DNA of 64,000 bases from Dictyostelium discoideum (lineage: Eukaryota): contig CM000151.3 in assembly GCA_000004695.1 (NCBI GenBank), positions 8,000,001 through 8,064,000 of the forward strand. The letters run 5' to 3'. Numbering within the stretch: the first letter of the stretch is position 1; the number at the start of each line of letters is the position of its first letter. The notes beneath the pieces were generated by a model, which worked only from the letters and a program-made list of their open reading frames with translations, searched no databases and was not told the origin of the DNA. This document shows positions 26,229 through 60,701 of this stretch, in pieces. The translations under genes were made by a program, and so were the position numbers.

Positions 26229-26830
26229 CTAAAAAAAAATAATAAAAAAATAAAATAAAATAAATATTTTAGAATTGATATAAATAATTATAAAAATATA
26301 TATAATTTTTATTTTAAAATTTATATACCAACCTATATAATAATGGACTATTTATAATATCTAATAATAATTTTAAAATTTTAATTTTAATTGTATTTGT
26401 GCAAAATGTGGATGAAGTAAGTTCGGTAATGCTTTGAACACCAACTTTAACAATTCTATTTTATATAAATAATAATAATAACAAGTGTCATTAAAAAAAA
26501 AAAAAAAATTTTATAGTATTTTGTTTTTTTTTTTTTTTTATTTTATTTTTTAGATTATATGAAGTAAATTCAAATAAATCAAATGAGGAATTTTTTTTTT
26601 TTTTATTTATTTTTTTTTAATAAAATCAAAAGTTAGAAGTACTATAAAAAGAAATCTCAAAAATAAACAAAACAAAAGGAAAAAAAAAAAAAAACAAAAA
26701 AAAATATGACTAAATTCAAAAATCTTTTTTTTTTTTCTTTTTTCCTTTTTTGTTTTGTTTATTTTGTTTTTATTTATAAACATTACAAAAAAGGAAAAAA
26801 AATGAAGAGATATTTTTGAAAGATAAAACG

Positions 26831-26867
<37 letters not shown>

Positions 26868-27213
26868 TTCACGCCTATAGTCTTGATGAGATGTTTCAAT
26901 TAATGAGAAACATGTTGTAATTGCTTCATTAAATTCCTCTTTCTTTTAATTTGTAGTTGTTGTAATTGTTCTTGTTGTTGTTGTAAAGTTAGTGAGGTGT
27001 TATTATTATTATTATTCGAAATTGAGGAAGTGGTGATATTTTGTGGTTGTTGCATTATTTTTATTTTTTTAATTTTTATTTAAAGTATTATTATTTTTGG
27101 TGAATATTGTTAAGAGAGAAGGGGGCAAAGAGGCATATATAATAGTATATCCACAAAAAAAAAAAAAAAAAATTTATTTGTAGAATGGTTTATAAACAAA
27201 AACAAAAAAAAAA

Positions 27214-27250
<37 letters not shown>

Positions 27251-27614
27251 AAATTATAAAAATTTTTGAAAAAAAAAATAAAAAAAAATAAAAAAAAAAA
27301 AAAAAAAAAAAAAAAATAAATAAAAATAAAAATAAATTAAAAAAATCATTTGTTGATCAAAAAATTTTTTTTTTTTTTATAATAACAAAATATCACATTT
27401 ATATAAAAAAATAAAAAAACCTTTTTATAATTTTTACTTAATATTGTATTAATATAGAAAAAAAAAAAAAAATATTAAAAAAAACAATTGTTTTTTTTTT
27501 TTTTTTTTTGTAGTTGTTGTATATTATAATTTTTTTTTTTTTTTTTTTTCTTTTCTTCTTTCTAAAAAAAAAAAAAAAAGCATAATAATAATTATTATTA
27601 TTTATTTGTGTATA

Positions 27615-27650
<36 letters not shown>

Positions 27651-27685
27651 CATATAATCTATTAAAAAAAAAAAAAAAAAGAAAT

Positions 27686-30600: not shown

Positions 30601-31387
30601 TGAATCATTATCACCAAGTGTTTGGAGATTTAAAGAAGCACCTGATGGTAGTAGTACTAGTGGTGTCTATTTACCACCACATTTCTTTGGTGAATTAGCA
30701 AAAACTGAAAAAGGTTGTCAATTAATTAGAAAATCAAATAACTATCAAAGATTTTTAAAAATCATTCAAGATCCAACCGCTAAACAATTGGATAAAAGAG
30801 CATCGTTAATCGCAATTGGTCATATTGGTTCTTCTGTCGATGGTTATTCATTCGTTAAAGAAAGTGATACAATCAAACTATTGATTGGAATAGCAGAGAA
30901 ATCTCAATGTTTGGCATTACGTAGTACTTGTTTCTATGCTTTGGGTATGATTTCATGTATTGAAGAAGCTCAACCAATCTTTAATTCCTTTGGTTGGGAA
31001 TCACCATCAGATTTAAACTCTAGAATCTTGTTACCAAAGGATTTAAAGAATTCAACTTTCCTAAGTGTACCACAATATCAATATCAAGGTAGTTGGGCTG
31101 ATCATTCATTTGAAACTTTACCATCAAATCATTTCTCTGATCCAATTAAAAATGAAATCATTTCTTTTGTTGGTAATTTATCTTCACATATCACTGCTGA
31201 AGGTGCTTCAAAGAATTTAAAACGTTTAAAAATCAAATATCCTGATCATTTTGCAACAAGTGAAATTTTAAATGCAGTTTTCATTTTATTAAATACTTTT
31301 AAATATCGTTTAGGTGCTAGAAGATTCATTTATGATTTATTTGATGTTGCAATATTTTCATCTGATCCATATCATGATTTAAATTAA
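27686..31387 (+). CDS. piaA: Rictor homologue (TORC2 subunit Pianissimo); join(27686..27978,28073..28556,28649..28879,28952..31387)
   Basis: Aligns with Rictor: VRPFIALPPKTIRTAGLRVMRYYLSNSNNVKELLDLKVQYFITRSLER matches VRAAGLRALRYLIQDSSILQKVLKLKVDYLIARCID. WGVELLVQQLNDVDAKVSALSLNVLDEACDDPSCLEVLIDLKPNLLKLGKPGKSLLLRFLSSPKG matches WGIELLVTQLHDKNKTISSEALDILDEACEDKANL...LLLLRFLSIPKG. Donors are gtaatt at 27979 (phase 2), gtaagt at 28557 and gtaagt at 28880. Acceptors are at 28071-72, 28647-48 and 28950-51. Summed CDS is 3444 nt, 1147 aa plus stop, close to the roughly 1148 aa recalled for PiaA. Confidence 0.85.
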
Positions 31388-33990: not shown

Positions 33991-34297
33991 GTGTGTCTCA
34001 ATTACAAATGTTCTTTATTATTAACTAAATAACATTACAATATATCAAAATAAATAATAAATAAATACTCTATTTAAAAAGTAATTTTTTAATAGTAAAC
34101 AAATTAAAAAAAAAAAAAAAAACAAAAAATTATCTCCTTTAAACATTTTAATTTCTTCTTTATTTATAAACAATGTGTTACAAATTATTACAACCCCAAT
34201 TTCAACATATTATTGAATTATAAGTTGGATTGGACACTTTAGAGAAATTACACATTTTAATAAGTTATAATATTTTATTAATTATTTATTTGTTTAT

Positions 34298-35225
34298 TTA
34301 TAATAATTTAATGAAATCAAATGTTTGAACATCGTTAGTATTGGTTACAGATTTGAAAGTGATAACGATATTACCAGATTCAAATGACCATGACCAATGA
34401 GCGTTCAAGTTAGCATCATGTTTAATGACGATTGTATGATTTGTAGTTGCTTCTTGAACTGCTTCTAAGATCATTTCATCAGCACAACGTTTGGCAAGAT
34501 TAGCAGCGACCTTTTCGACGATACCAGCAAAGATATGACCAAAACTATTCTTTAAATCATCTGCAACTTTTGGATAAACAGTTTCTAATGATGATTCATC
34601 AATTGACCAATCTGATGATGATTTTAATGCTTTTTTAACTGCTGATAAATTATCTTTCATTTTTTGTTCATTTGTTTTAATATTTAAACGAGTCATTAAA
34701 GTATAAACACCTTGAGTTGGAATAATAGTCTCTAATTTGAATGTGTTAACATCATTTGTGTTACAAATCTTTGGACGGAATAAAACTCTACAATCACCAT
34801 TCTCAAATTGATATTTCCAATAGGATTCCAACTTTTCATCAGCACAAACAAAAACGAATTTCTTATTTGGAACAGCTGCTAAAAATGCTTCTTTAATTAA
34901 TGGATCTGCACCGACTTTTACCATATTCTTTGCAAGATTACCAACTACATCTTTGTAAAAGATACTTCCACAACTATTAGTAACCCATGAATCATTACAT
35001 TTAGTAATAATATCTTCAAAATCAAATTCAATTGAAAATGGTTCACCTAATGATTTTTCGATTGATGCTAAATTAGTTTTTAAAGATTCTTCATTATCTT
35101 TTAATGATTTTCTATAAATATTATAAATTTAATTATTAATTAATATTTATATTAATTATTAAATGGAATATAATTATTATTATTTTTATTATTTATATTT
35201 ACCTTGAGGTTAAGGCGAGAGGCAT
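34298..35225 (-). CDS. uncharacterised two-domain protein family, copy A (278 aa); join(35225..35203,35111..34298)
   Basis: Exon 1 is ATGCCTCTCGCCTTAACCTCAAG|gtaaat. Exon 2 follows the acceptor tatttatag and begins A AAA TCA TTA AAA GAT... Protein MPLALTSRKSLKDNEESLKTNLASIEKSLGEPFSIEFDFEDIITKCNDSW...TNTNDVQTFDFIKLL. Copy-specific residues DPLIKE, CRVLF, IIPTQG. Confidence 0.8.
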
Positions 35226-35894
35226 TTTAAAAGTTTTTTTTTTATTAATATTGAAATATTATTTAGTTTAAGGTTTTTGTTTTGAATTATTTGGTAATAA
35301 AAAAAAAAAAAAAAAAATATTCACATTTTTATACTTAAAAAATAGAAAAAAATTAGATTAAAAAAATCCAGAAATATTTAAAAATATTAAATAAAAAATA
35401 TAATTATGAATTTTAAGAATGTAATTGGAATAGTTTTTTTTTTTTTTTAAAAAAATATCTTGTTTTTTTGTTTTAAAAAAAAAAAAAATATTTTAATTTG
35501 TATTTTTTTATTTTTTTTTTTTTTTTTTGGATCGGGTATCTTTAAAAAAAAAAAAAATTGATAATAAGATAATTTTTAAATTTTAATTTATTTTGTTACG
35601 AAATGAATTAAATTCATTATATATATAAATGTGTATTTTTTTTTTTTTTATTATTTATTTTAATTATTTGAATATAATGAGTTTAAAATAAACTATGGTT
35701 TGCCATATCGAAGTTTATTAAAAAATAAAAAAAGACTTAAAAAATTAAATTTGAAAAATAATAAAAAATAATAACAATTCCGTCCATTCAATTAAAAAAA
35801 AAAAAAAGATATGAATAGATATAGATAATTTAAAAAACTAAATTAAAATGTGAAATTTTATTTTTAAATGATTAATTTAAATTATTTTCTTTTA

Positions 35895-36000
35895 TCTAGA
35901 AATTGTCCAAAGAAACAATCATGATGGTTTCGGTGGTTGTAACTATAAGTCTCTCTTTGAGAAAATCGAGGAAAGTTATAATAAATTACAATCATGGTCT
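35895..36000 (+). pseudogene. degenerate duplicated fragment of the hpd 3' end (last about 35 codons plus 3' flank continuing to about 36090)
   Basis: 35897-36090 (gaaattgtccaaagaaacaatcatgatggtttcggtggttgtaactataagtctctctttgag...aatactctatttaaaaataattttttaatagtaaac) is a diverged, frameshifted copy of hpd 33890-34090 (gaaattatccaaagaaacaaccatgatggtttcggtgctggtaactttaaatccctctttgaa...aatactctatttaaaaagtaattttttaatagtaaac). Confidence 0.8.
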
Positions 36001-36178
36001 CAATTACAAAAGTTCCTTATTATTGGTTGAATATCAATATAAATTAATACTCTATTTAAAAATAATTTTTTAATAGTAAACTAACAAAAAAAAAATCAAA
36101 AAACAATCACCTTTTTATACTTTTAATTTCTTCTTTATTTTTTAACAATGTGTTTAATAATATTAGTAGCTTTTTTAT

Positions 36179-37106
36179 TTATAATAATTTAATGAAATCA
36201 AATGTTTGAACATCGTTAGTATTGGTTACAGATTTGAAAGTGATAACGATATTACCAGATTCAAATGACCATGACCAATGAGCATTCAAGTTAGCATCAT
36301 GTTTAATTACGATTGTATGATTTGTAGTTGCTTCTTGAACTGCTTCTAAGATCATTTCATCAGCACAACGTTTGGCGAGATTTGCAGCGACCTTTTCGAC
36401 GATACCAGCAAAGATATGACCAAAACTATTCTTTAAGTCGTCAGCAACTTTTGGATAAACAGTTTCTAATGATGATTCATCAATTGACCAATCTGATGAT
36501 GATTTTAATGCTTTTTTAACTGCTGATAAATTATCTTTCATTTTTTGTTCATTTGTTTTAATATTTAAACGAGTCATTAAAGTATAAACACCTTGAGATG
36601 GAATGATTGTTTCTAATTTGAATGTGTTAACATCATTTGTGTTACAAATCTTTGGACGGAATAAAATTCTACAATCACCATTCTCAAATTGATATTTCCA
36701 ATAGGATTCCAACTTTTCATCAGCACAAACAAAAACGAATTTCTTATTTGGAACAGCTGCTAAAAATGCTTCTTTAACTAATGAATCTGCACCGACTTTT
36801 ACCATATTCTTTGCAAGATTACCAACTACATCTTTATAAAAGATACTTCCACAACTATTAGTAACCCATGAATCGTTACATTTAGTAATAATATCTTCAA
36901 AATCAAATTCAATTGAAAATGGTTCACCCAATGATTTTTCGATTGATGCTAAATTAGTTTTTAAAGATTCTTCATTATCTTTTAATGATTTTCTAAAAAT
37001 AAAATAAAATAAATTATTAATTAAAATTTATATTAATTATTAAATGAAGCATTATTATTATTATTTTTATTATTTATATTTACCTTGAGGTTAAGGCGAG
37101 AGGCAT
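36179..37106 (-). CDS. uncharacterised two-domain protein family, copy B; join(37106..37084,36992..36179)
   Basis: Same two-exon structure as copy A (exon 1 is 23 nt, donor gtaaat at 37083, acceptor ttttag at 36994-93). Residues DSLVKE, CRILF, IIPSQG. Confidence 0.8.
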
Positions 37107-37398
37107 TTTAAAAGTTTTTTTTTTATTAATATTAAAATATTATTTATTAGTTTAAGGTTTTTGTTTTGAATTATTTGATAATAAAAAAAAAAAAAAAAAA
37201 ATTTACATTTTTATACTTATGAAATTAGAAAAAAAATAGATTAAAATCCAGAAATATTTAAAAATATCAAAAAAAACAAATAAAATTATTAATTTTAAGA
37301 ATGTAATTGGAATGGTTTTATTTTTTTTTTACACTTATAAATTAGAAAAAAAATAGATTTGAAAATATCTAGATTTTTTTTTTTTTTTTTTTTTTTGG

Positions 37399-37429
<31 letters not shown>

Positions 37430-37542
37430 AATATCTTAATTTGTTTTATTTTTTTTTTTTTTTTTTTTTTTTTTGGGTTGGTGTGCTTTAAAAAAAACAA
37501 AAAATAACAATGAAAAAAATAAACTCTTTTTGGGTTGAGGTG

Positions 37543-37579
<37 letters not shown>

Positions 37580-37640
37580 TGAACAGATAATTTCAAACAC
37601 TAAATTAAAATATGAAATTTTATTTTTTAAATGTTTAATT

Positions 37641-38672
37641 TCAATTATTTCTTTTTTCTAAATTAATTTTAAATTCGTTTGGTTTAAAAGAGAAACCAAA
37701 TATAGGTTTATCACAAATCTTTGAATTTTCAATTAAAGGTAATAGCTTAAAGTTTAAAACAAGGTTTGAAAGTGAAATGTATAATTCATCTTGAGAGAAA
37801 CCCATACCAATACAATTTTTAACACCAATTCCATATGGAAAATAATTATTTGAATGAGAATCTTGATCAAGGAATCTCTCTGGTTTAAATTGGTCAGGTG
37901 AATCCCAATAGTTTTCATCTCTAAATATTGAATAAAGTGATTGAATGATTTGAGTACCTTTTGGAATTTTCAAAGATCCACCATTAATTTCAAATGATTG
38001 ATTTACTTGACGAGGTACACCAAATGGTACAGGTGGATATAATCTCAAAACTTCTTTTAAAGCTGCATTAAATAATGGTGTTTGATTTCTATTTGAAAGT
38101 TTAATCATCGCTGTTGTCGTTTCCAATGTTGATTTTAATTCATTATAAATTTTATCTTGATAATCAAGATTATTTACCATTGTTAAAATGAACCATTCAG
38201 CAGTACTTGAATTTGTTTCTGTGCCAGCTAAAATTAATTCATTTACCATTGGGATGATTGAACTTTGTTCTTCTTTACCACCAACTTTTCTATATTCAAT
38301 AATCAATGAATCCAAAACATCTCTTGCATTATTTAAATCAATTGATTCAGAATGTTCTAAATAATATTTTGTTAAAATCTTTTTCAAAGAATCTGCTGGA
38401 TGACCAAACATTTTTAAATATAAAAAATAGAATGGTTTTGTAAATATTAAATAATTTACAATTAATGTATCTGCTAAATAATCAAATAATTCTCTAATTG
38501 CTAATAAAACTTTTCCTTGTTCTTCATTTACACCTTCATAAATATTTTCAATACGTCTTGAAAATACATAATCAAAAATAATATTTGAATAAAAGTTCAT
38601 AAAATTTGATCTTGGTGAAAACTTTTAAAAAAAAAAAAAAAAAAAATTAATAAACCAAGTAATGTTTTTAAC

Positions 38673-38727
<55 letters not shown>

Positions 38728-39242
38728 GTACTACTTACAGATTGACCAGATTTTTCAATAAATTTCATATATGTAATTAAATCAATTGTTTCTTTTTCTA
38801 TTGAAGATGAAAGTGATTTAACTTTTCTACCAGTAAATGATTTCATTAAAATATCACGATGAAATTGCCAATAATTTTCATCGGCAGTGACAATACCTCT
38901 AAATCTATTTCCTATTACATTTGTTGATGGTGATTTAACTCTTGTATTTAATGATTCTGGATTCTTTAAATAAATTTCTTTCATTGTATTTGTATCATAA
39001 ATTGCCAATGTCAATTGATCACAAAACCAATATTTGATTATTTTACCATTGTTATCACCATCTTTATATAGTTTACTATCATTTTGAAATACTAAATGTG
39101 TATCATCTTTTAAATGTAATAATGAACCTACTAATGGTAATGCCAAGGGTCCTTTAAATTGTCTATTACTAAAATTTTTATATAAAAAATCAAAAATTAA
39201 ATAAAAAATTATTGAAATTATTAAAATAATTAAAATTGACAT
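37641..39242 (-). CDS. cytochrome P450 monooxygenase; join(39242..38739,38621..37641)
   Basis: N-terminal membrane anchor MSILIILIISIIFYLIFDF. Heme-binding signature FPYGIGVKNCIGMGFSQDE near the C-terminus. PERF-like KPERFLD. Donor GQS|gtaagt at 38738, acceptor ttttttaaaag at 38623-22. Exon 2 begins FSPRSNFMNFYS. About 494 aa. Confidence 0.8.
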
Positions 39243-39643
39243 TTTAATATGCTTTGGTATCTTATAAAAAATAAAAAAATAAAAAATAAAAAAAAAAAAC
39301 AAAAAAAAAAAAAAAAAAAAAGGTGAAAGAAAAAAAAAAAAAAATATCTAAACTACTGTAAAAAAAAAAAATAAAAAAAAAATAAAAATAAAATAAATCT
39401 TTTTTTGGTTAAAAAACTAATTTTAAACATTGTTATAAATCTAAAATTTTCCATATGGTAAATAAAAAAAAAAAAATAATAATAATTCAAAAAACAAATA
39501 TAAATTATAAAAGATTATAAAATTCTTAAAAATTAAAAATGTTTTTTTTTTTTTTTTTTTTTATTATTATATTATTATTTAAATAAATAGATATATTACA
39601 AATTTTTATTTTTTATATATTATTAATTAATTAATTAATTAAT

Positions 39644-42189
39644 TTATCTAATTAATTCAATTAAAGAATTTTGTTGAAATTTACCAAAATTTCTAGCATA
39701 ATTATCTAATTCTCTAATCAATAATGGTGAATTAATTCTAATTTTTTTTAAAGTTTCATTTTTTGTATTTAAAATTTTAAATAAATCGAAATCGATTTGA
39801 CTAATAGTATCCATACAAATTCTTTTTAATCTTTTAACCATGAAACCATCGGCAACTTGCATTAGAATACAAATATTATCAAATGAAGTTAAAGTTTCTT
39901 CAAAATTTAAAATATCTTCTTTCTTTAATTTTTGTTGATTTCCATCGATGTTATTTGTTGTTTTTGGAACATTTTTTAATAAAATTTCATTATTTGATAA
40001 AACCATTTGTTCCAAATGATATTCACAAAGATATTTTAAATCTTCAATCATGAATCTATCAGCCAAACAAAGTATATCTATAGCATTATCATCATTGATA
40101 ATCTCTTCATTATTACCATAGATATATTGAAGTAATAGTTTGAAAGTTTCTTTGGAAGAGATATCATTTTCATCTTTACCACTTACAATGAATTCCATTT
40201 GATCCTTCTCTTTGAATGAACATTCAAACATTGTTTTAAAATAAAGATTTCTTTGAGTTAAAATGAATTTATGAGCGTAAATTGAAGAGGTATCAGATTC
40301 TTTGATTTTGAATGAAATATCAGCTTTGGTTAATTCATCAACTGCTTGAATTAATTGTTTACTAAATTCTGAAGGTGGTATTTTCTCGGTGAGTCTTAAT
40401 CTATAGGTATAACGTTTACAAATGGCTGATAATCTTTCAATTCCCATCTTTTCAGCATATTTACCCAATTCAATTCTTAAATGTGGTGCAATCACTAAAT
40501 GATCAGTATATAAATATTGTAAAAAACCAATGAAAATTTGATATTTAACTGAATTGCCTAAATCAATAATTTTAATTTCTTCACCATTTTCATTAAATTC
40601 TTTTTCTTCTTCTTTTTCTTCTTCTTTTTCTTCCTTAGCCACAACAACTTGTTTATTATTTGAATATTGATTAATAAATCTTGATGAAAATAAAATTATT
40701 GAATATAATTTTTGGCAACGTGATTTTATAAATAATGAATGAGAATAAATTTTCTTATCTTGAACTTTAAATATTAAATCTGCATACTTCTTTTCATTAA
40801 TTAATGATTTATAATCATAAGCAAATGAAGTTACATCGGAACATCTTACAACGATTGTATGTTTTTCACCGGCTGTGATCGATGCAATTTCTTCACCAGA
40901 TAGAGAAGTGATTAATTGTGGTACCAATTGAAATCTTTTATTACCTAAACCCAATGCACCAGAACTACCCCAACCCCATTGATAAACTTCATTCTCATCA
41001 GTTACAACGATTGTATGTAAATGACCACATGCTACATTTTTAATTTTTTTAGTTTCTAATGATTTAACCACTATTGGTATTGAATATTTGAAATGATTAT
41101 CTCTTCCACCGAAATCCAAATGTTGAGTTTCTTCTGTGCTACCCAATTGACCATATTCTCCATGACCAAATGCATACAATAGACCTTGGACGCTTCTAAC
41201 CATAGTGAAATTGGAACCACATGCAACTTGAGCTATTCTTTCATTTAATTCTACAAACTGTTGAATTTTCTTTGGATGAAGGTAACTCTTTACATTACCA
41301 TGACCCAATTGACCGAAAACACCAAGTCCCCAACTATAAACTTCACCTTGATCGGTGATGGCACAAATATGTTGACGACCACATACAACACTAACAATGT
41401 TCACATCGATTAATGTTTTCACCAATTGTGGTGTAGAATGAAACCAACGATTACCTAAACCCAATTGACCCTTTTCATTGAATCCCCATGTATATAAACG
41501 ACCAGATTTAGTAACGGCTGCACTAAATGCCCAACCACCACTCACATCTACCACTTCCTCTGGTATATCTTGAATTTGCATTGGAATGGTTTGATTTAAA
41601 TCAATGATTTTACCCAAATGCTTACTCTTTGATTGTGCACTATTGGATGCTTCCTTATCTTCATCATCATCCTTTGGTTTTGTACCACCATTGGCATCGT
41701 ATGCCTTCTTTTCACCCGATAGATATTGTGAAACTGATGCCTCTATAATTCTTTGAGATGATAATCTTGGCATTTCAATTAAACCATTGGTTGATTGTAT
41801 ATCCAATGATGATTGTGACTCGTCTAATCGATGTAGTTGACCCCATTCATAAACTTTACCCATATCAGTCAATGCTAAACTATGAAAATTACCACATGCT
41901 ACCTTTATAATTCTTTCATGTTGTAAACTTTTAATCAATGTTGGTTTTGCTACAAACATTACTTTATCACTACCACCATACCCTTGACCAATACCTAATT
42001 GACCTTCTTTTGATCTACCCCATGAATAAACATCTCCAAATCTTGATACAGCCAATGAATGTGCTTCACCTGATACTGTTTGTATAATTCTTTTACCTAA
42101 TAATCCTTCAATAACTGTTGGTTCTAAACATTCTTTAATTGAATCATGTCCTAACTGCCCATTTTTTGATTGTCCAACACTTAAAACTA

Positions 42190-42225
<36 letters not shown>

Positions 42226-42304
42226 ATGATTAATATAATTTATGTTGAACATTCAGAAAATAGTAAAAATAAAAAAAATAAAAATAAAAAAACTTACCTG
42301 ACAT
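39644..42304 (-). CDS. RCC1-repeat + tandem BTB/POZ domain protein (RCBTB-like); join(42304..42298,42186..39644)
   Basis: The track ORF starts at a TTG. The reading frame continues upstream (SVGQSKNGQLGHDSIKECLEPTVIEGLLGKRIIQTVSGEAHSLAVSRFGDVYSWGRSKEGQLGIG...) to the acceptor ttattag at 42188-87. The only matching start is the 7-nt exon ATGTCAG|gtaagt at 42304..42298 (phase 1), which gives MSVLSVGQS... The N-terminal 450 aa carry repeated RCC1 blades (YSWG/YTWG/YEWG...GQLG). The C-terminal half has two BTB-like segments (ADLIFKVQDKKIYSHSLFIKSRCQKL...; SSIYAHKFILTQRNLYFKTMFECSFKE...). Confidence 0.75.
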
Positions 42305-43017
42305 TTTATTATTTTTATTTTAATATTATATTTATATTTATGTTTATATGTTTTTTATTTGTTTTGATAATTTTTAATAAATTTTTTTTTTTTTTTTTTT
42401 TTAACTTTATTTTTTTTTTTTGTAAAATTAAATTTAAAAAAATAAAATAAATTAAAAATTAAATTTTAGAATTCTATAGAAAGAATTTTTCCTTTTATAG
42501 TAAGTTTTTGTTTTTTTTATTTTTGTTGTTTTTATAAAAAAAAAAAGGTTTTTGTTTTATTATTATTTTTGTTTTTTTATTTTTATTTTTGTTTTTTTTT
42601 ATTATAAAAGAAAAATGGATTTGAAAATAAATATTTTAAAAAAATTAAAATTAATTTTATGAAAAAAAAAAAATATTGAGTATGAGTGAATTAATAATCA
42701 ATAATGAAAATAAAAAAAAAAAAAAAAACTAATTCGTCTTTCTTTTTAAATTAAAAAAAAAAAAATAAAAACCAATTATTTATTATTTTTTATTTTTATC
42801 TTTTTTTTATTATTTTTTTTATATCAAGTAAATTAAATTATTATACCAAGTAAATAAAATAATACCCCAATAAAATGATAAAGTTCTTCTCAATTTCAAA
42901 GAATGTACCTGTTTTTTATTGATAAAATTTGAAAAATTAAAAAAAAAAAAAATAAAATTAGAAAAAAAATATTTTTTTTAATTTTATTTTCATTTTTTTT
43001 TATTTAATTTTTTTTTT

Positions 43018-43058
<41 letters not shown>

Positions 43059-43661
43059 TAATTTTTCAAAAATTGAGATATTTATTTCGCATATGTTTTA
43101 GTAAAAATAAGCCAAAATTAGTTTTTGGGTTTTGTTGGCATTTGTTTGTTTTTTGAGTATTAATTACATTTTTTAGTTTGAATATTTTTTTATTATTATT
43201 ATTATTTTTATTTGTTATTTATTATTATTGTTATTATTATTATTTTTTTTTTTTTTTGAGTTTTTCATTTTTGTGTTGCAAAACACAAATAAAAAAACAT
43301 GTCACACACCCATTCAGTTTATAATAAAAAAAAAAAAAAAAAAAAAGAAAAAAAAAGAAAATAAAAAAAAGTGGGATTTTCATTTTTTTTTTTTTTTTTT
43401 TTTCAATCATTTATTTTTATTTTTGTCATCAACATATTAATATATAATTATTTTTAAATCTCGTTTTAATAATTCCCCACTTTTTTTGTTTTTTTTTTTT
43501 TTTGCATAATTAATTTTAATTTTTATTTTTTTTTTCTGTACATATAATTTATTAAAAAAAATAAAAATAAAAAATAAAAAATAAAAATATAAAATAAAAA
43601 AAAAAAAAAAAAAAAAAATAAAATAATATAAAATAAAAAAAAAAAAAAAAAAAAAAAAAAA

Positions 43662-45683
43662 ATGAAAGATATTTGGAAATCAGCAAGAAAAGGTGATTTA
43701 GCAAAGATTAAAAAGTATATACCAGGCACAAAATTTAAAGTTGATGAATTAGATAAAGAGAATAGATCAATTCTTCATCATGCGATTGATGGTGACCAAT
43801 TACAAATGGTAAATTATTTATTAGAACAAGGTGCAAATATAAATTTAAAAGATCCTAAATCTGGTGATACTGTATGTATTTAATAATTATAAATAAATAA
43901 AATATATTATTATTATTTTTTTTTTTTTCTAATAGAAAAACATATGTTAATTATTAATTATTATTTTTTATTTATAATTTAGCCAATTTTAATGTCATTA
44001 AAAAAAATTAATGCAATTGATAAACAAGAAGATATTGCAATTTTATTAGTTAATAAAGGTGCAGATTTAGATGTTGAATCAAGAGAGAGAAAGAATGTTG
44101 AAAGATATGTTGATGCATGTCCAAAACGTTTTCAAATAAAGTATAAAGATGCAATTACACAAAAGTTTAAAAATAAATATCCACCAAAGGCAATTGCACC
44201 AGCAAGTCCAGCTACTCAAGTTCTTTTAGCGCAAACTGCAGGTTTACCACCACCTTCACCAAAACCAAATCCACCACCACCACAACAGCAAGAAAACACT
44301 GCTACATCATCAATTATATCAACTGTCGAACCAAGACCATATGTAAATTCAAATGGTGAAACAGTTGTAAGATCAACTAATGAAATGGATTTAATTTTAC
44401 AAGAATCATTGTTAGGTGATGATTTTGATAAAGAACAAGATTTGAATATAATTTGGATGGAAGTTGCATTTAGAGCATCAATCGTTTCCATTAGGTCTGA
44501 GAAAGTTAGATATGACGATATCACCAAAGCCACCGATCAATGTGGTAATATTTTAATACATTTGCTATCAATCATTGGTAATTCAGAGACAACATCGTTC
44601 ATGGAGACTGTAAAGAATCAAGAAGCTGTAAACTCAATTCAAGAACGTGTTAAAAACGTTAAGGAGGGTATCAAACTCCGACTGTTCTCTAGAATTGATC
44701 ATTCTGAATTAATTAGATTAGTTGCAGCTTTAATTGGTTCATTACATTGGATTTACAATTGCTGGTCAGAGGTCCCACAAGACGATATCAATAGATCAAT
44801 TGCCGAATGTGCCTTGTCATGTCGTGTTGCAATGAATTCAGTTACAACTCATACACCATTCCAGTTGGGTGTTTTAACAAATATTGCAAAACTTTTAAAA
44901 AATATTTCAACTAAAGTTTTCATTACTCGTACTCCAGAGGATGCAAAGAAGTTATCAGATTCTTGTTTTGTTATCTCTTCAACTTTTAAATCATTAATGG
45001 TTCTATCGGTAGTGAATGATGTCAAACAAAAATCAGCTGAAAATATCATCTCATTAGGTCGTTCAATCGCCGAACAATTATCAATATTAAAATTACAATC
45101 AACTTCAATCTTACCTTCAAGAGTTGGTCAAAATTTATCATCAAAAGAAGAACGTGAGTTAAATGAATCTGCTTCAAATCAATTACGTTCATCAATTGAT
45201 TATTATATTTCAAATAATAAATCTGATACAACTACTACTACTACAACTACAACTACAACTACAAATAGTGAGAATAATAATATTACAGATTTAATTTCAT
45301 CACCAAAAAGATTACCAAAAGAAGATAAAACATTACCATTATTAGCAAATATTGAAAAATCAATTTCAATGTTAATGGGATTTACAACTGAAGATAGAAA
45401 TATTCAAATGGCAATTCCAGTTCATATGATTGCAAAGGATATTCATGAACTTAGAACTATATTATTAGAATACATTAAAGAACAATCTGATAGTTTATCT
45501 GAAGAATTTAAAGATCAAATTACAAATGCTATCAATTGTTCTGCTCATTTTTCAACTCAACAATTATTCTCTGTATCTGCTTTAATTTGTCATAATAGAA
45601 TTACTGATATCTCACAATTAGGTTATTCTTCTCGTAATATTGCTGCTTGTTGTTGTATTTTAATTGATTCATTCTGTTTTTAA
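43662..45683 (+). CDS. ankyrin-repeat protein with large C-terminal domain of unknown function; join(43662..43871,43983..45683)
   Basis: Exon 1 reads MKDIWKSARKGDLAKIKKYIPGTKFKVDELDKENRSILHHAIDGDQLQMVNYLLEQGANINLKDPKSGDT, then gtatgt at 43872. The acceptor aatttag at 43981-82 leads into PILMSLKKINAIDKQEDIAILLVNKGADLD, an ankyrin GDTP...A...G consensus that spans the junction. About 636 aa. Contains T11 and a Pro-rich linker. Confidence 0.7.
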
Positions 45684-45818
45684 AAAATAAATAAATAATA
45701 AATAAATAATAAATAAATAATAAATAAATAAATAAATAAAATTTGTAAAATAAAATATTAATTTATAATAAAATAAATCAATTTATTTTTTCCCTGAAAG
45801 TAAAATAAAATTAATTAA

Positions 45819-45843
45819 TTAATCTCGAAAATGAATTTTTAAG

Positions 45844-45896
<53 letters not shown>

Positions 45897-47222
45897 GAAA
45901 TTATTAAAATTATTAATATTAAAATTATTCTTTAAATTTTTTGATAGTGATAAAAATGTTAATGAAATTGGTAATTTAATTTTTAATAAATTTTCAATTG
46001 AATAATTATTATTTAATATTAAATGAGTTAATGTTGATGGTAATATATTATCTTGATCAAATGGTTGATTAAAATTTATATTTTCTAAAAGGTTAAATAT
46101 TTTTAAACCATTTGGTAATATGTTTGTATCAATTTTTGAATTGAAATAACCAATGATTGAAAATTCAATTAAACTTGTTAAACATTGTAATAATGAACCA
46201 ATATAATAATTTAAATTTAAATTTAATCTTTTACATGTGAATTCAATCAAGTCAAATGCAATTTCAAATTTTTTAATTGAATTACTTGGTGATAGTATAG
46301 ATGGAGTTAATGGTATTTGTAAATCATAAATTTGTAAATTCTCAACTGTTGATGGTATTGAATTTGGTAGAAATTTCATATCTTTTGAATAACATTCTAA
46401 ATTTATTAATGATGGTGGTAGTGATTCATGAGTAATTTCTAATTTATTAGTATTATTATTTTCATTTTCATTTTCATTAATATAATACATCATAGTTAAT
46501 GATTTTACATTTATTGGTATAACATTTTTAACAAGTTTATTACATTTTAAAATCACTTCTAAATTAATTATTGAATTTGGTAATACTGAAATATCAAAAC
46601 CTTCTCTGTAACTATTTAATACTAAATTTTTAATACCATTTGGTATATCACCAATTTTTAAAATTGAATCACCATTATTCCACTCATTTATAAATGTTAT
46701 TGATTCTAATGTACTTGGAAATTTAATTGTATCTTTTGAAATTTTTGGACATTTTAAAAATGTTATTTCTTTAATATTATTTGGAATTAAATAATCATTA
46801 CCTTTACTATAATCAGTTTCATTAATTACAACATTTTTAACTGACTTAATTGTTGATGGTAATAGGAAAAGAGGAGTTGTGGAAACGAGTATGTTATTAT
46901 TAAATGTTAAACTAATTCCAAATTCAATTATTTCAACTCCAAATGGTATTAAACAACTTGCAATATTTGAAATTGATTGTTCTTTAAATACTATTTTATT
47001 TAATACACCATTTTTATTATTTGGTAAAAAACACTTTTCATTTATTGATTCATTACCTTTATATATTAATGTTCTAATATATTCCTTATTTTCATATTCA
47101 ATTAATGATGTTAAATTTAAAAATGTTACAATTTCATTTTTTTCATATAATAATTTAAACTCTAAAATCATTTTTAACAAATAAACATTTCTCCAAACCT
47201 TAAAAAATAATTTATCTTTCAT
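45819..47222 (-). CDS. FNIP-repeat (Dictyostelium-type leucine-rich repeat) protein, 467 aa
   Basis: Continuous ORF. Repeated approximately 22-residue units of the form LP.(S/N/G)I(K/E).L.(F/L)... (IPNNIKEITFLKCP, LPNSIINLEVIL, LPNSIPSTVENLQIY, LPNGLKIFNLLENINFNQPF). Coordinates are taken from the ORF track because of the ±1 local inconsistency noted in this stretch. Confidence 0.7.
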
Positions 47223-47663
47223 TATTTGATTTTTTTTTTTAAGAATTTCAAAAGGAAGAGTTTGAAAAATTCATTATCGATTTCACAAATAATAAAATTT
47301 CAGTCCAATTTTTACAATTAAAATTTTTTATTTATTATTTTTCAATTTTTAGATTAGAGGTAATAAAAATAAAATAAAATAAAATAAAAAAAAAATTAAA
47401 ATTAAAATTAAAAAAAAAAAACAAGATATTTTCATTGGTTAAAAAAAAAAAATATCTTTTTTATTAAAAAAAAAAAAAAAACATTCCAACTACATTCTTA
47501 AAAATAATAATTTTATTTTTTTAAATATTTCCAATTCTAAATCTATTTTATTTCTATTATTATTTTTTTTATTTTATTTTTTATAAGTATAAAATGTAAA
47601 TTTTTTTTTTTTTTTTCCAATCAATTCAACAAACTTTAAACTAATCAATACAATAAATTAAAA

Positions 47664-48590
47664 ATGCCTCTCGCTTTAACTTCAAGGTAAAAAAAAAAAA
47701 AAAAAAAAAATTATAATTCATTTAGTGGTTAATAATTTAAAATTACTAATTTAAATTAAATTTATTTAATTTATAGAAAATCATTAAAAGATAATGAAGA
47801 ATCTTTAAAAACTAATTTAGCATCAATTGAAAAATCATTGGGTGAACCATTTTCAATTGAATTTGATTTTGAAGATATTATTACTAAATGTAATGATTCA
47901 TGGGTTACTAATAGTTGTGGAAGTATCTTTTATAAAGATGTAGTTGGTAATCTTGCAAAGAATATGGTAAAAGTCGGTGCAGATTCATTAATTAAAGAAG
48001 CATTTTTAGCAGCTGTTCCAAATAAGAAATTTGTTTTTGTTTGTGCTGATGAAAAGTTGGAATCCTATTGGAAATATCAATTTGAGAATGGTGATTGTAG
48101 AATTTTATTCCGTCCAAAGATTTGTAACACTAATGATGTTAACACATTCAAATTAGAGACAATCATTCCATCTCAAGGTGTTTATACTTTAATGACTCGT
48201 TTAAATATTAAAACAAATGAACAAAAAATGAAAGATAATTTATCAGCAGTTAAAAAAGCATTAAAATCATCATCAGATTGGTCAATTGATGAATTATCAT
48301 TAGAAACTGTTTATCCAAAAGTTGCCGACGACTTAAAGAATAGCTTTGGTCATATCTTTGCTGGTATCGTCGAAAAGGTCGCTGCAAATCTCGCCAAACG
48401 TTGTGCTGATGAAATGATCTTAGAAGCAGTTCAAGAAGCAACTACAAATCATACAATCGTTATTAAACATGATGCTAACTTGAACGCTCATTGGTCATGG
48501 TCATTTGAATCTGGTAATATCGTTATCACTTTCAAATCTGTAACCAATACTAACGATGTTCAAACATTTGATTTCATTAAATTATTATAA
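47664..48590 (+). CDS. uncharacterised two-domain protein family, copy C; join(47664..47686,47777..48590)
   Basis: Exon 1 ATGCCTCTCGCTTTAACTTCAAG|gtaaaa has synonymous changes relative to the other copies. Acceptor ttatag at 47775-76. Residues DSLIKE, IIPSQG, IDELSLE. Confidence 0.8.
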
Positions 48591-49270
48591 ATAAATAAAA
48601 AAAGCTATTAATATTATTAAACACATTGTTAAGAAATAAAAAAGAAATTAAAAAGTATTAAAAGGTGATTGTTTGTTGATTTTTTATTTGTTTATTTATT
48701 GTTTATCATTTAAAAATTAATTTAGTGTTTTAAATTATCAATTTCTATTCATATCTTTTTTTTTTTTCTCATTTAACTGAATGGATGGAATTGTTATTAT
48801 TTTTCAAATTTATTTTTTAAAGTCTTTTTTTATTTTTAATAAACTTCGATATGTTAAACTATTTTTTATTTTAAACCGTTTAATACAAATAATTATAATA
48901 AATAATTGAAATATATAACAAAATAAATTAAAATTAAAGATTAAATTCTATTGTCAATTTTTTAAAAAGAGTGTATAATAATAAAAAAAATAGTATAGAT
49001 AAAATATTAAGTAGATATGTGATTATCTATTTTTTTTTTTTTTTCATTTGGAAATTTAGACAATTCAAACACTATGTTATTCATACATCAAAAATTAAGA
49101 TATTATTTTAGTTTTATTTTTTATTTTTTTTTATTTTTTATTTTTTTTAACGATACCCCTATAAAAAAAAAAAAAAAATAAAAAAAAAAAAAATAAGATA
49201 TTTTTAAAAAAAAAAAAAAAATAAAAAAAAACAAGTCCAGATATTTTTTTTTAAAAAAAAAAAAAAAAAA

Positions 49271-49388
49271 TCATTCCAATTACATTCTTGAAATTAATAA
49301 TTTTATTTTTTATCTAATATTTTTAAATATTTCTGGATTTTTAATCTATTTTTTTTCTATTTTTATAAGTATAAAAATGTAAATATTT
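49271..49388 (+). promoter_or_regulatory. conserved promoter module shared by the five-copy family, representative copy D; equivalents at 47481..47600 (C), 50995..51110 (E), 35322..35432 (A, minus strand) and 37204..37317 (B, minus strand)
   Basis: Near-identical blocks lie 80-200 bp upstream of each ATG: TCATTCCAATTACATTCTT(G/A)AAA(T/A)TAATAATTTTATTTT, then ...TTTAAATATTTCTGGATTTTTAATCTATTTTTTTTCTATTTTTATAAGTATAAAA(A)TG(T/G)AAAT. Conservation is far above the surrounding poly-A/T spacer. Confidence 0.5.
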
Positions 49389-49468
49389 TTTTTTTTATTA
49401 TTATCAAATAATTCAAAACAAAAACCTTAAACTAATAATATTTAAATATTAATAAAAAAACATTTAAA

Positions 49469-49496
49469 ATGCCTCTCGCCTTAACCTCAAGGTAAG

Positions 49497-49527
<31 letters not shown>

Positions 49528-50399
49528 GCTTCATTTAATAATTAATATAAATTTTAATTAATAATTTAATTTATTTTATTTTTAGAAAATCATTAAAAGA
49601 TAATGAAGAATCTTTAAAAACTAATTTAGCATCAATTGAAAAATCATTGGGTGAACCATTTTCAATTGAATTTGATTTTGAAGATATTATTACTAAATGT
49701 AACGATTCATGGGTTACTAATAGTTGTGGAAGTATCTTTTATAAAGATGTAGTTGGTAATCTTGCAAAGAATATGGTAAAAGTCGGTGCAGATTCATTAA
49801 TTAAAGAAGCATTTTTAGCAGCTGTTCCAAATAAGAAATTCGTTTTTGTTTGTGCTGATGAAAAGTTGGAATCCTATTGGAAATATCAATTTGAGAATGG
49901 TGATTGTAGAATTTTATTCCGTCCAAAGATTTGTAACACAAATGATGTTAACACATTCAAATTAGAAACAATCATTCCATCTCAAGGTGTTTATACTTTA
50001 ATGACTCGTTTAAATATTAAAACAAATGAACAAAAAATGAAAGATAATTTATCAGCAGTTAAAAAAGCATTAAAATCATCATCAGATTGGTCAATTGATG
50101 AATCATCATTAGAAACTGTTTATCCAAAAGTTGCTGACGACTTAAAGAATAGTTTTGGTCATATCTTTGCTGGTATCGTCGAAAAGGTCGCTGCAAATCT
50201 CGCCAAACGTTGTGCTGATGAAATGATCTTAGAAGCAGTTCAAGAAGCAACTACAAATCATACAATCGTAATTAAACATGATGCTAACTTGAATGCTCAT
50301 TGGTCATGGTCATTTGAATCTGGTAATATCGTTATCACTTTCAAATCTGTAACCAATACTAACGATGTTCAAACATTTGATTTCATTAAATTATTATAA
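49469..50399 (+). CDS. uncharacterised two-domain protein family, copy D; join(49469..49491,49586..50399)
   Basis: Exon 1 is 23 nt then gtaaga. Acceptor tttag at 49584-85. Residues DSLIKE, IIPSQG, IDESSLE. Confidence 0.8.
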
Positions 50400-51192
50400 A
50401 TAAACAAAAAAAGCTATTAATAATTAAAACACATTGTTAAAAAATAAAGAATAAATTAAGTATAAAAAGGTGATTGTTTGTTGATTTTTTTTTATTTGTT
50501 TTTTATTGTTCAAAGTCTTTTTTTTTAATAATAATCGATATGTTAAACTATTTTTTATTTTAAACTCCTTTAAATACAAATAATAAAAATAAATAATTTT
50601 ATCCAAAAAAAAAAAAGAAAAAAAAATGAATTATAATTCATTGTGTAACAAAATAAATTAAAATTAAAAATAATATCTTATTATTATATTTTAAAAAAGA
50701 GTGTATAATAGATAAAAAACTAAAAAAAGTATTGATAAAATATTAAGTAGATTATCTTTTTTTTTTTTTTTTTTTTTTTCTTTTTGAAATTAAGATAATT
50801 CAAACACTATTTATTCATTACATCAAGTATTATAAAGAATTAAAAGATATCATTATATTTTTCTTTTTTTTTTTTTTTAACGATACCCCTATCCAAAAAA
50901 AAATAAAAAATAAAAAAAAAAAAACAAAAAAAAATAAAAAATAAAAAAAAAATAATATAAAAACCAAAATCCAGATATTTTTTATAAAAAAAAATCATTC
51001 CAATTACATTCTTAAAATTAATTATTTTATTTGTTATTTAATATTTTTAAATATTTCTGGATTTTTAATCTATTTTTTTTCTATTTTTATAAGTATAAAA
51101 TGGAAATTTTTTTTTTTTTAATTATCAAATAATTCAAAACAAAACAAACTAATAAATAATATTTTAATAATAATAAAAAAAAAACTCTTAAA

Positions 51193-52121
51193 ATGCCTCT
51201 CGCCTTAACCTCAAGGTAAAAATAAATAATAAAAATAAAAATAATAATAATATTTCATATAAAAATTAATAAAAATTTATTAATAAATAAATTTATTTTA
51301 TTTTTAGAAAATCATTAAAAGATAATGAAGAATCTTTAAAAACTAATTTAGCATCAATCGAAAAATCATTGGGTGAACCATTTTCAATTGAATTTGATTT
51401 TGAAGATATTATTACTAAATGTAACGATTCATGGGTTACTAATAGTTGTGGAAGTATCTTTTACAAAGATGTAGTTGGTAATCTTGCAAAGAATATGGTA
51501 AAAGTCGGTGCAGATCCATTAATTAAAGAAGCATTTTTAGCAGCTGTTCCAAATAAGAAATTTGTTTTTGTTTGTGCTGACGAAAAGTTGGAATCCTATT
51601 GGAAATATCAATTTGAGAATGGTGATTGTAGAATTTTATTCCGTCCAAAGATTTGTAACACAAATGATGTTAACACATTCAAATTAGAAACAATCATTCC
51701 AACTCAAGGTGTTTATACTTTAATGACTCGTTTAAATATTAAAACAAACGAACAAAAAATGAAAGATAATTTATCAGCAGTTAAAAAAGCATTAAAATCA
51801 TCATCAGATTGGTCAATTGATGAATCATCATTAGAAACTGTTTATCCAAAAGTTGCAGATGATTTAAAGAATAGTTTTGGTCATATCTTTGCTGGTATCG
51901 TCGAAAAGGTAGCTGCTAATCTCGCCAAACGTTGTGCTGATGAAATGATCTTAGAAGCAGTTCAAGAAGCAACTACAAATCATACAATCGTCATTAAACA
52001 TGATGCTAACTTGAACGCTCATTGGTCATGGTCATTTGAATCTGGTAATATCGTTATCACTTTCAAATCTGTAACCAATACTAACGATGTTCAAACATTT
52101 GATTTCATTAAATTATTATAA
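51193..52121 (+). CDS. uncharacterised two-domain protein family, copy E; join(51193..51215,51308..52121)
   Basis: Exon 1 is 23 nt then gtaaaa. Acceptor tttttag at 51306-07. Residues DPLIKE, IIPTQG, which match copy A. Confidence 0.8.
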
Positions 52122-52228
52122 ATAAACAAATAAACAATAAAACATTTTAAAAAACGAGTAATAATAAAATATGTTCAAATCTTTCGAAAGATTTTAATTT
52201 TTTTGACATTATTTATTTGGTTTGATTC

Positions 52229-52263
<35 letters not shown>

Positions 52264-52659
52264 TGCACTTTTATCTATAAAAATAAAATTATACATTACA
52301 TAATTTACCTTTTTCTAATCAAAATATAATTTATTTTTTAATTATTGGTCTGTGAAAATAAGCAGATTTTTTTTTTCCCAACTGTAGTGAAAATTTTCAG
52401 CAGTGCAGGGAAAAAAGGGAGTTTAATACCTGATGGCAGTAATGGGTTAATTGGCAATTGTCTATCAATTGTTTCATTTGGAAATTGCAGGACTGATAAA
52501 ATAAAAAAATAAAAATTGTATATTAACTTTAAAACGTAAAGATATTTAATATACAATATAAATATTTTAAAAAATCAATAAAATAAAAATAATTTATTTA
52601 TTTTCTTTTTCTAAATATATATATAAAAGTATTTTTAACTATTGTTATTATTATTATTA

Positions 52660-60701
<8,042 letters not shown>

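Follow-up and report, generated by a model that had tools for sequence, protein, structure and literature searches.

The DNA analysed here (the window) is a stretch of 64,000 nucleotides of chromosome 2 of Dictyostelium discoideum AX4 (contig CM000151.3; positions 8,000,001 to 8,064,000). It carries five genes that each encode a protein of 278 aa, all of them transcribed outward from a central block of 10,557 bp (coordinates 37107–47663, from the ATG of copy B to the ATG of copy C). The left array, on the minus strand, consists of an outer copy A (DDB_G0277417; 34298–35225), which adjoins the HPPD gene, and an inner copy B (DDB_G0277415; 36179–37106), which adjoins a cytochrome P450 gene. The right array, on the plus strand, consists of an inner copy C (DDB_G0277425; 47664–48590), a middle copy D (DDB_G0277423; 49469–50399) and an outer copy E (DDB_G0277421; 51193–52121), which is convergent with a gene for Atg2 (PF13329, E 2e-136).

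Copy A is made up of a 23-nt exon 1, a 91-nt intron and exon 2. The exon-1 string has exactly five occurrences in the window (0 expected by chance), at 35203–35225 and 37084–37106 on the minus strand and at 47664–47686, 49469–49491 and 51193–51215 on the plus strand, with 2 synonymous mismatches in copy C. All introns are GT..AG introns of 90–94 nt in phase 2, and their removal leaves five intact ORFs whose products differ from one another at 1–4 positions. The coding sequences have 27 variable sites, 22 of them synonymous, and the inverted-repeat arms are 850–946 nt long and 94–99% complementary. Copy A is closest to copy E (11 nt differences in the coding sequence), and copies B and D, which form an arm of 911 nt that is 99% complementary, differ by only 2 nt and are thus near-identical; the exact protein of copy D is also encoded in strain ACTFIW. 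Copy C is the most diverged of the five in its promoter, intron and exon 1, and shares a 441-bp divergent intergenic region with the FNIP gene of the central block.

An upstream module of ~250 nt aligned between all five copies (35226–35480 and 37107–37361 on the minus strand for A and B; 47409–47663, 49214–49468 and 50938–51192 on the plus strand for C, D and E). Each module contains CATTCCAAYTACATTCTT once, at about -190 to -210, together with a TATAAGTATAAAA box and CAAATAATTCAAAACAAAAACCTTAAACT. There are five occurrences of CATTCCAAYTACATTCTT in the window, where 0 are expected, and the same motif also precedes the DDB_G0271254 orthologue and the copies of other strains. The description given by an earlier, sequence-only reading, of near-identical copies in mirror-image arrays that keep a common exon 1, phase-2 intron and promoter module, is accurate.

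The central block holds the four genes which that reading had assigned to it. Pfam matches identified the cytochrome P450 (about 37641–39302, minus strand), a protein with RCC1 repeats and a BTB domain (from about 39644 to 42055 or beyond, minus strand) and a FNIP-repeat protein (45819–47222, minus strand), and the ankyrin-repeat protein (main exon 43992–45683, plus strand) was recognised through Pfam annotation precomputed for its orthologue.

The protein family and its expression

The window protein has no Pfam match and no sequence match in the PDB, and a sequence check agreed with the earlier statement that it has neither a signal-like N-terminus nor a transmembrane segment. It had also been described as matching no named family; this stands, with the qualification that it falls in a sizeable family of protist proteins (331 cluster representatives; 1–5 tandem domains per protein), which is represented in Physarum, Percolomonas, Cavenderia, Heterostelium and Acytostelium. 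Two domains are present in 115 of the 188 relatives collected, and fusions to a PH domain (three proteins) or to TPR and SH3 domains (one protein) were seen. Conservation in the family falls mostly on Gly and hydrophobic positions, with R, N, D, K, E and N in addition.

The N-terminal and C-terminal halves of the protein share 37% identity (E 1e-20), and the AF2 model (pLDDT 93, pTM 0.82) has the order alpha1-beta1-alpha2-alpha3-alpha4-beta2-beta3-beta4 present twice. The product is predicted to be a 31-kDa soluble cytosolic protein of two ~140-aa alpha/beta domains. The same 278-aa two-domain architecture is found in the paralogues DDB_G0271254 and DDB_G0281617, with which the five copies share 91–97% identity over 100% coverage (E 1e-167 to 1e-175). 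The paralogues lie at separate loci, and the Gaa1/phosphodiesterase locus has an array of its own, at a dS of about 0.55 from the one described here. A dictyBase note lists the paralogue DDB_G0281613 as a 'centrosomal component', a hint of some other role in the cell.

The family copies are expressed. A look at expression data, as had been proposed from the sequence, showed that on infection with Legionella pneumophila copy A is induced with log2 fold changes of 3.5 at 1 hpi and 7.1 at 6 hpi (PMC6902447, Additional file 3), copy C with 2.7 and 2.8, and copy E with 3.2 and 4.2 (PMC6902447). The paralogues DDB_G0281613/617 are also Legionella-induced (PMC6902447, Additional files 3 and 6), and many developmental or starvation genes are co-induced in the same RNA-seq study. 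Copies B and D are absent from its differential-expression lists, probably due to multi-mapping reads.

Orientation of the central block and exchange between copies

The possibility that the arrays are a collapse or duplication artefact, raised with the original description, can be set aside because an independent Nanopore assembly (GCA_054883475.1; 99.4–99.6% identical) reproduces the left array directly and, according to the accession list of exact matches, encodes all five exact proteins. The assemblies compared were made de novo from Nanopore and Illumina data, as described in PMC12745789, and orientations were read at the assembly level from gene tables and from megablast and tblastn synteny.

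The order in AX4 is RICTOR+ HPPD+ [A- B-] P450- ... FNIP- [C+ D+ E+] Atg2-. In ACTFIR, where the locus is internal to a single contig of 4.9 Mb, the order is Atg2(+) [4 copies -] P450- RCC1- ANK+ FNIP- [2 copies +] HPPD- RICTOR-, and in ACTFIW it is ...FNIP- [4 copies +] HPPD- RICTOR-. In the long-read assemblies of two wild D. discoideum isolates, the central block is thus inverted with respect to its flanking genes (HPPD/RICTOR and Atg2). This bears out the earlier idea that inversion could be driven by the inverted arrays; for amplification of the block itself, suggested at the same time, no evidence was found. D. cf. discoideum and D. citrinum have the AX4 orientation, and D. dimigraforme was left out of the scoring as its flank is a PKS gene, not Atg2. 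The number of copies per array, a comparison likewise proposed from the sequence, ranged from 1 to 4 across the assemblies.

The breakpoints lie inside the arrays, as the inner spacers accompany the block, leaving the outer ones with the flanks. The spacer between HPPD and copy A (33991–34297), which stays with HPPD/RICTOR in the inverted strains, is 94% identical to the spacers that separate HPPD from the nearest copy in ACTFIR and ACTFIW, and the spacer between copy E and Atg2 (52122–52659), which stays with Atg2 in the inverted strain, has 95% identity to the c6-X spacer of ACTFIR and 92% to the c-X spacer of ACTFIY. The inverted segment comprises the central block and the innermost family copies, and megablast blocks show that the unique sequence on either side of the breakpoints is otherwise collinear. 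A single inversion event is enough for these data, and recurrent flipping is not demonstrated.

The locus had been described as recently amplified, a claim that comparison with other species does not support. In D. dimigraforme the same block is bordered on either side by inverted copies, with an identical protein encoded on each side, and the right-hand side of the arrangement, the side seen, is present in D. citrinum and D. cf. discoideum. Because the arrangement is common to these species, the near-identity of the copies is better explained by ongoing gene conversion, unequal crossing-over and purifying selection. Copies within a genome, including those across the block, are closer to each other than to those of other strains or species in the distance matrix and in dS, which is 0.05–0.10 within a genome, 0.13–0.15 between strains and 0.37–0.45 between species. 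The copies are under strong purifying selection (dN/dS 0.02–0.09), and the pattern points to concerted evolution under that selection. The near-identity of B and D, which runs from the intron to the stop codon, is read as a recent exchange or gene-conversion tract.

Alternative explanations

As near-identical inverted repeats are a classic cause of mis-orientation, the opposite orientation in ACTFIR and ACTFIW, or else that in AX4, might be an assembly artefact and not a real polymorphism. The orientations were read from assemblies, and the ACTFIW contig begins exactly at the junction of the P450 gene and the array, so the region is hard to assemble. However, these two independent assemblies agree with each other, the ACTFIR contig contains the whole locus, four assemblies (the AX4 Sanger reference, the 99.5%-identical Nanopore assembly, D. 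cf. discoideum and D. citrinum) agree on the other orientation, and the boundary spacers behave exactly as repeat-mediated inversion predicts. The arrays are also only about 3–7 kb, well inside Nanopore read lengths (method in PMC12745789), and an artefact is highly unlikely. If the inversion is real, it could be a functional switch that alters expression of the block genes or of the family copies and is kept by selection. Both orientations persist in one interbreeding species, since AX2 forms macrocysts with CR116C and OT3A (reported in PMC12745789), and the innermost copies switch array membership upon inversion. A switch is nonetheless scarcely credible, as each gene's own promoter travels with it and the inner spacers accompany the block, so that no promoter-gene junction is altered, and there is no recombinase gene or specific site at the locus. 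That the copies became alike through recent independent amplification in each lineage, with no gene conversion between them, would agree with the low within-genome dS and with the variation in copy number between strains, which requires duplication and loss to be active. However, both D. discoideum and D. dimigraforme have copies to the left and right of the block, and this, together with inner promoter spacers (FNIP-copy and P450-copy) that are orthologous between D. discoideum strains, places the origin of the two-sided arrangement before splits at a dS of about 0.4; re-creating inverted copies on both sides independently in each lineage would be unparsimonious. The B–D identity tract, moreover, ends at the intron and the stop codon, with flanks only 60–90% identical, which is typical of conversion and not of whole-unit duplication, and independent amplification seems rather improbable.

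Instead of a binding module, the protein could also be a divergent enzyme, either a thioester-forming module like the HECT C-lobe or a zincin-like hydrolase, and the best fold matches, to the HECT C-lobe and to zincin-like structures, make enzymatic ancestry possible. However, the HECT profile (PF00632) matched neither the window protein nor any of 37 diverse members at E up to 1. The candidate for the HECT catalytic cysteine, C124, is kept only in dictyostelid domain-1 sequences, is replaced by Thr in domain 2 and differs from the residue conserved there in the family-wide consensus. For a zincin-like metallopeptidase, no HExxH metal-binding motif or variant was found in the protein. An enzymatic role is quite unlikely and, because no family-wide conserved Cys/His or metal motif is present, the most likely function is a non-enzymatic one, as a module for binding or scaffolding at the cortex or a membrane-signalling interface. 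This functional reading is a weak one, drawn from domain fusions in distant homologues, the absent catalytic motifs and one RNA-seq study.

Proposed recombination at the arrays and its relation to known systems

Taken jointly, an old pair of inverted tandem arrays, formed by one gene family and dynamically maintained, the recombination mechanism set out below and a binding or scaffold function for the product have a probability of roughly 70%. Homologous recombination among repeat units of ~0.9–1.8 kb would be the common driver. Unequal crossing-over within an array would change copy number, and non-crossover gene conversion within and between arrays would homogenise the coding region, the B–D tract in AX4 being a likely example. 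A crossover between oppositely oriented copies, a form of non-allelic homologous recombination (NAHR), would invert everything between them and would also shift inner copies from one array to the other. As the genes are induced by Legionella, it is proposed that multi-copy dosage may be used in a stress or infection response. A bolder and rather unlikely extension is that the ~140-aa repeat is an undescribed cytosolic domain of amoeboid protists, lacking both a Pfam model and a convincing PDB relative, that acts in a cell-autonomous response to intracellular bacteria such as Legionella, the arrays serving as a dosage device that keeps copies identical, tunes their number and repeatedly flips the block as a by-product.

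Inversions by NAHR between inverted segmental duplications are known from human Xq28 (FLNA-EMD) and from other recurrent inversion polymorphisms. As there, high-identity inverted repeats surround a unique gene block, both orientations occur in one species, and the breakpoints lie inside the repeats with the block genes intact. Here, however, each repeat is itself a short array in which a functional gene that is expressed recurs in tandem, with 0.9-kb units at a 1.7–1.9-kb period, and exchange therefore also moves gene copies between arrays; a single event would suffice here. Gene conversion between arms and concerted evolution are likewise familiar from palindromes and inverted arrays such as those of the primate Y chromosome, in which, as here, paralogues in opposite orientation are closer within a genome than orthologues are between species, with bounded tracts. 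In contrast to those palindromes, the arms at this locus are not continuous, and homology is essentially limited to promoter and gene, the spacers being much more diverged. Within Dictyostelium, tgrB1/tgrC1 is a structurally hyperdynamic gene-family locus (PMC12745789), where local duplication, recombination and inversion affect a multigene locus in the same set of genomes. High polymorphism and diversification mark the tgr genes, whereas the present family is homogenised and under strong purifying selection, and the present locus is not named in the term-matched passages of that paper.

Repeat-mediated inversion and concerted evolution are already well known and the genes were already annotated as hypothetical, so current understanding is not overturned. 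The locus is a compact natural example, in a tractable haploid Dictyostelium, of copy-number change, inter-array conversion and inversion at one site, usable for measuring recombination rates between repeated copies, and it calls for caution when reads are mapped to these genes or knockouts of them are made. The protist-wide domain, which combines a confidently predicted structure with strong purifying selection and induction by Legionella and has no known relatives, could reasonably be targeted in functional studies of how amoebae respond to stress or infection.

Architecture of the five-copy locus

The window is AT-rich (14–31% GC in 2-kb windows), and the 23-nt exon 1 string of the family gene was found five times in it with no further occurrences, where none would be expected by chance. 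Once GT..AG introns of 90–94 nt were spliced out, five intact 278-aa ORFs were obtained, two on the minus strand (copy A, DDB_G0277417, 34298–35225; copy B, DDB_G0277415, 36179–37106) and three on the plus strand (copy C, DDB_G0277425, 47664–48590; copy D, DDB_G0277423, 49469–50399; copy E, DDB_G0277421, 51193–52121). All five predicted proteins are matched exactly by AX4 gene products, which places the window on chromosome 2 of D. discoideum AX4, and they differ from one another at 1–4 positions, with 22 of the 27 variable sites in the coding sequences being synonymous. Copy B is also present in the Rosengarten list. The arrays point away on both sides from a central block of 10,557 bp that encodes a P450, an RCC1 and BTB domain protein and a FNIP-repeat protein identified using Pfam, and an ankyrin protein assigned via the Pfam annotation of an orthologous gene model. 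The mirror-image arrangement described in the sequence-only reading was thus confirmed.

The arrays are bordered by genes for HPPD and RICTOR on the left and Atg2 on the right. The large single-copy genes for RICTOR/piaA (TORC2; 26468–31387, plus strand) and Atg2 (autophagy; 52660–60024, minus strand) remained intact and in collinear order in every assembly compared, with the D. dimigraforme flank carrying a polyketide synthase gene instead of atg2. Homology between the repeat units is 95–100% in exon 2 and about 80–95% in the 230 nt upstream, where copy C is more divergent and can still be aligned, and it falls off rapidly past the stop codon. An independent Nanopore assembly that is 99.4–99.6% identical to the window reproduced the left array and its flanks and, according to an accession list, codes for exact matches to all five proteins. 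It follows that the arrays are real and not a collapse or duplication artefact.

An 18-nt motif, CATTCCAAYTACATTCTT, was found once upstream of each copy (35415–35432, 37297–37314, 47482–47499, 49272–49289 and 50996–51013), about 190–210 nt before the gene. It also precedes family copies in other strains, and the orthologue of the single-copy paralogue DDB_G0271254 (comparison locus L001, 9791–9808). This motif is a candidate shared cis-regulatory element.

The protein family and its expression

The family protein (31.3 kDa, pI 5.7) includes no hydrophobic segment (maximum Kyte-Doolittle score over 19 residues of 1.09) and no HExxH motif. Its N- and C-terminal halves share homology (37% identity, E 1e-20), and an AlphaFold2 model built from 14 sequences (pLDDT 93, pTM 0.82) predicts the fold alpha1-beta1-alpha2-alpha3-alpha4-beta2-beta3-beta4 twice per protein. 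Pfam searches with the window protein and 37 diverse relatives returned only sub-threshold, inconsistent matches and no family, the PDB contained no match by phmmer or by profile, and a Foldseek search of the PDB found nothing. The earlier view that the protein belongs to no named family was therefore upheld for Pfam and PDB. However, when 1.84 billion cluster representatives were searched with a profile, 331 relatives were identified (154 with E values up to 1e-10), and the protein does belong to a wider family.

Domains were counted in 188 family proteins, consisting of the 150 best-scoring of the 331 profile hits together with close homologues and cluster members. Two domains were present in 115 of these and a single domain in 34, while three, four and five domains were found in 21, 11 and 7, respectively. 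Among the named sources are all major dictyostelid groups, together with Physarum and the heterolobosean Percolomonas. Domain fusions, which were considered informative, are rare: three proteins carry a PH domain at the N-terminus, and one carries TPR and SH3 domains. The family-wide consensus (LpL..RKNIrd.e ... G ... D ... G ... KDemvKEAF ... Y ... G.L ... N) is made up mainly of structural residues. The domain family is conserved among protists and has no name; its structure is predicted with confidence, and none of its potential relatives is convincing.

Outside the window, D. discoideum encodes a 695-aa paralogue, DDB_G0290465 (P0040/P0192), with five tandem copies of the domain. According to supplement file 2 of PMC11367525, where it was the only one listed of the IDs looked up, this gene is expressed in growing cells and goes down by about 5 log2 units (about 30-fold) in development. 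Paper texts searched using the five gene IDs, UniProt IDs and paralogue IDs included no mention of any of these other than DDB_G0290465 as a weak hit in an O-fucose pull-down table (PMC11507795). The supplements of PMC6198379 and PMC7078664 contained no entries for six IDs looked up.

Induction of family genes by L. pneumophila is recorded as log2 fold changes by Kjellin et al. 2019 (PMC6902447, Additional files 3 and 6). The values at 1 and 6 hpi, respectively, were 3.5 and 7.1 for copy A, 3.2 and 4.2 for copy E, 2.7 and 2.8 for copy C, 1.6 and 5.7 for the paralogue DDB_G0281617, and 2.4 and 6.3 for the paralogue DDB_G0281613, which is termed a 'centrosomal component' in dictyBase text quoted in the same files. 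In Additional file 6, the column before the two L. pneumophila columns, presumed to represent M. marinum infection, was non-significant for the copies and DDB_G0281617. Copies B and D were not in the differential lists of these two files and, as they are nearly identical, this fits the loss of multi-mapping reads. As many developmental genes are co-induced in this dataset, induction of the family may be a response to stress or starvation rather than pathogen-specific. The shared upstream motif could possibly underlie the co-induction by Legionella. Tentatively, the product might serve in the cytosol as a module for binding or scaffolding that stress or infection can induce.

Orientation of the central block among genomes

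Long-read assemblies built de novo from Nanopore and Illumina data by Holland et al. 2025 (PMC12745789) provided the orthologous regions, and gene orders were derived by marker tblastn and megablast. The order in AX4 is RICTOR+ HPPD+ [A- B-] P450- RCC1BTB- ANK+ FNIP- [C+ D+ E+] Atg2-. In the wild strain ACTFIR (GCA_054859385.1), where the region is in one 4.9-Mb contig, the order is Atg2+ [4 copies -] P450- RCC1BTB- ANK+ FNIP- [2 copies +] HPPD- RICTOR-, and in the wild strain ACTFIW (GCA_054859355.1) it is P450- RCC1BTB- ANK+ FNIP- [4 copies +] HPPD- RICTOR-. As FNIP is at the HPPD-facing end in both wild strains whereas P450 occupies this position in AX4, the orientation of the block between its flanks is reversed in the wild strains. 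The FNIP-copy and P450-copy spacers moved with the block, while the copy-HPPD (94% identity) and copy-Atg2 (95%) spacers stayed with the flanks, placing the breakpoints inside the arrays. This is where they would be expected if the inversion arose via homologous recombination between copies of opposite orientation, and at assembly level the proposal that the inverted arrays could drive inversion was borne out.

In D. cf. discoideum ACTFIY and D. citrinum ACTFIU, FNIP faces Atg2 as in AX4, so by parsimony the ancestral orientation is that of AX4. In D. purpureum (L011) the genomic context is different and of no help in polarising the arrangement. A single inversion suffices to account for the data. 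It is highly likely, subject to read-level confirmation, that recombination between the repeats has inverted the block at least once and that D. discoideum is polymorphic for this inversion.

The ACTFIW contig (JBTAPG010000054.1; L002, 3.98 Mb, record positions 153–1811) starts close to the 3' end of the P450 gene (about 240 nt away), exactly where the Atg2-side array is expected to begin, and the other half was not recovered in this genome. The break could be due to the length of the array or to heterogeneity in orientation. Joining the end of contig 74 (JBTAPG010000074.1; L004) to this start was rejected as the copies would be in the wrong orientation and those in contig 74 are of a divergent type belonging to a second family locus. 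In D. dimigraforme (JBTAPM010000055.1; L008, 12279–21030, and L009), an initial assignment of the inverted orientation was dropped because the flanking 2635-aa gene encodes a polyketide synthase and not Atg2, making orientation unscorable. On the P450 side, this genome has a head-to-head pair of copies, a gene for a CfaA_B_C-like secreted protein and the polyketide synthase gene. HPPD was not found within 10 kb on the side away from P450. The polyketide synthase in place of Atg2 and the absence of a nearby HPPD indicate further rearrangements around the locus in that species.

Copy number and homogenisation of the arrays

Comparison across strains and dictyostelids, as the sequence-only reading had proposed, revealed 1–4 copies per array, with 2+3 in AX4, 2+4 in ACTFIR, four on the HPPD side (the only side seen) in ACTFIW, and one on the Atg2 side in both ACTFIY and ACTFIU. 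As array sizes differ among genomes, unequal exchange is also active. In ACTFIY, the 1.48-kb spacer that separates FNIP from the single full copy contains sequence resembling array spacers and also a 126-aa gene model (L007, 8741–9121), which may be a remnant of a lost or truncated copy. In ACTFIU, a 630-aa gene (L010, 11066–12958) lies between the single copy and atg2; it had no Pfam match, and tblastn ruled out membership of the family.

Mean dS was 0.05–0.10 between copies within one genome, 0.13–0.15 between D. discoideum strains, 0.20 between AX4 and D. cf. discoideum, and 0.37–0.45 between these and D. dimigraforme. The low divergence within genomes had been read as recent amplification. 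However, the two-sided arrangement is common to these taxa, and in D. dimigraforme the same central block is found between oppositely oriented copies, with an identical protein encoded on both sides. The low within-genome divergence is therefore attributable to homogenisation and not to youth. The AX4 copies pair in a mirror-like fashion, as only 2 nt separate B from D and 11 nt separate A from E, and the B-D tract extends over 911 nt (99% match) from the intron to just beyond the stop codon, with flanks that are 60–90% identical. In ACTFIR, the FNIP-adjacent copy differs from a copy in the opposite array by only 6 nt. Among copies dN/dS was 0.02–0.09, indicating that the protein is under strong constraint.

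The second family locus lies beside the Gaa1 and phosphodiesterase genes in ACTFIW (L004; JBTAPG010000074.1, 5969–13790), where the contig ends within the array, and in D. citrinum ACTFIV (L012; 7628–12639). It has one minus-strand copy head-to-head with two to three plus-strand copies, and in AX4 it probably corresponds to the region of DDB_G0281613/617. Within each genome, the copies at this second locus are homogenised (8–25 nt differences), whereas about 80 nt (mean dS about 0.5–0.55) separate them from the copies in the window.

Literature searched by gene and protein IDs included no description of such a mechanism at the window locus, though it is well known in kind. With high confidence, subject to read-level confirmation, two inverted tandem arrays are maintained here by recombination, and the locus shows copy-number change, inter-array conversion and inversion.
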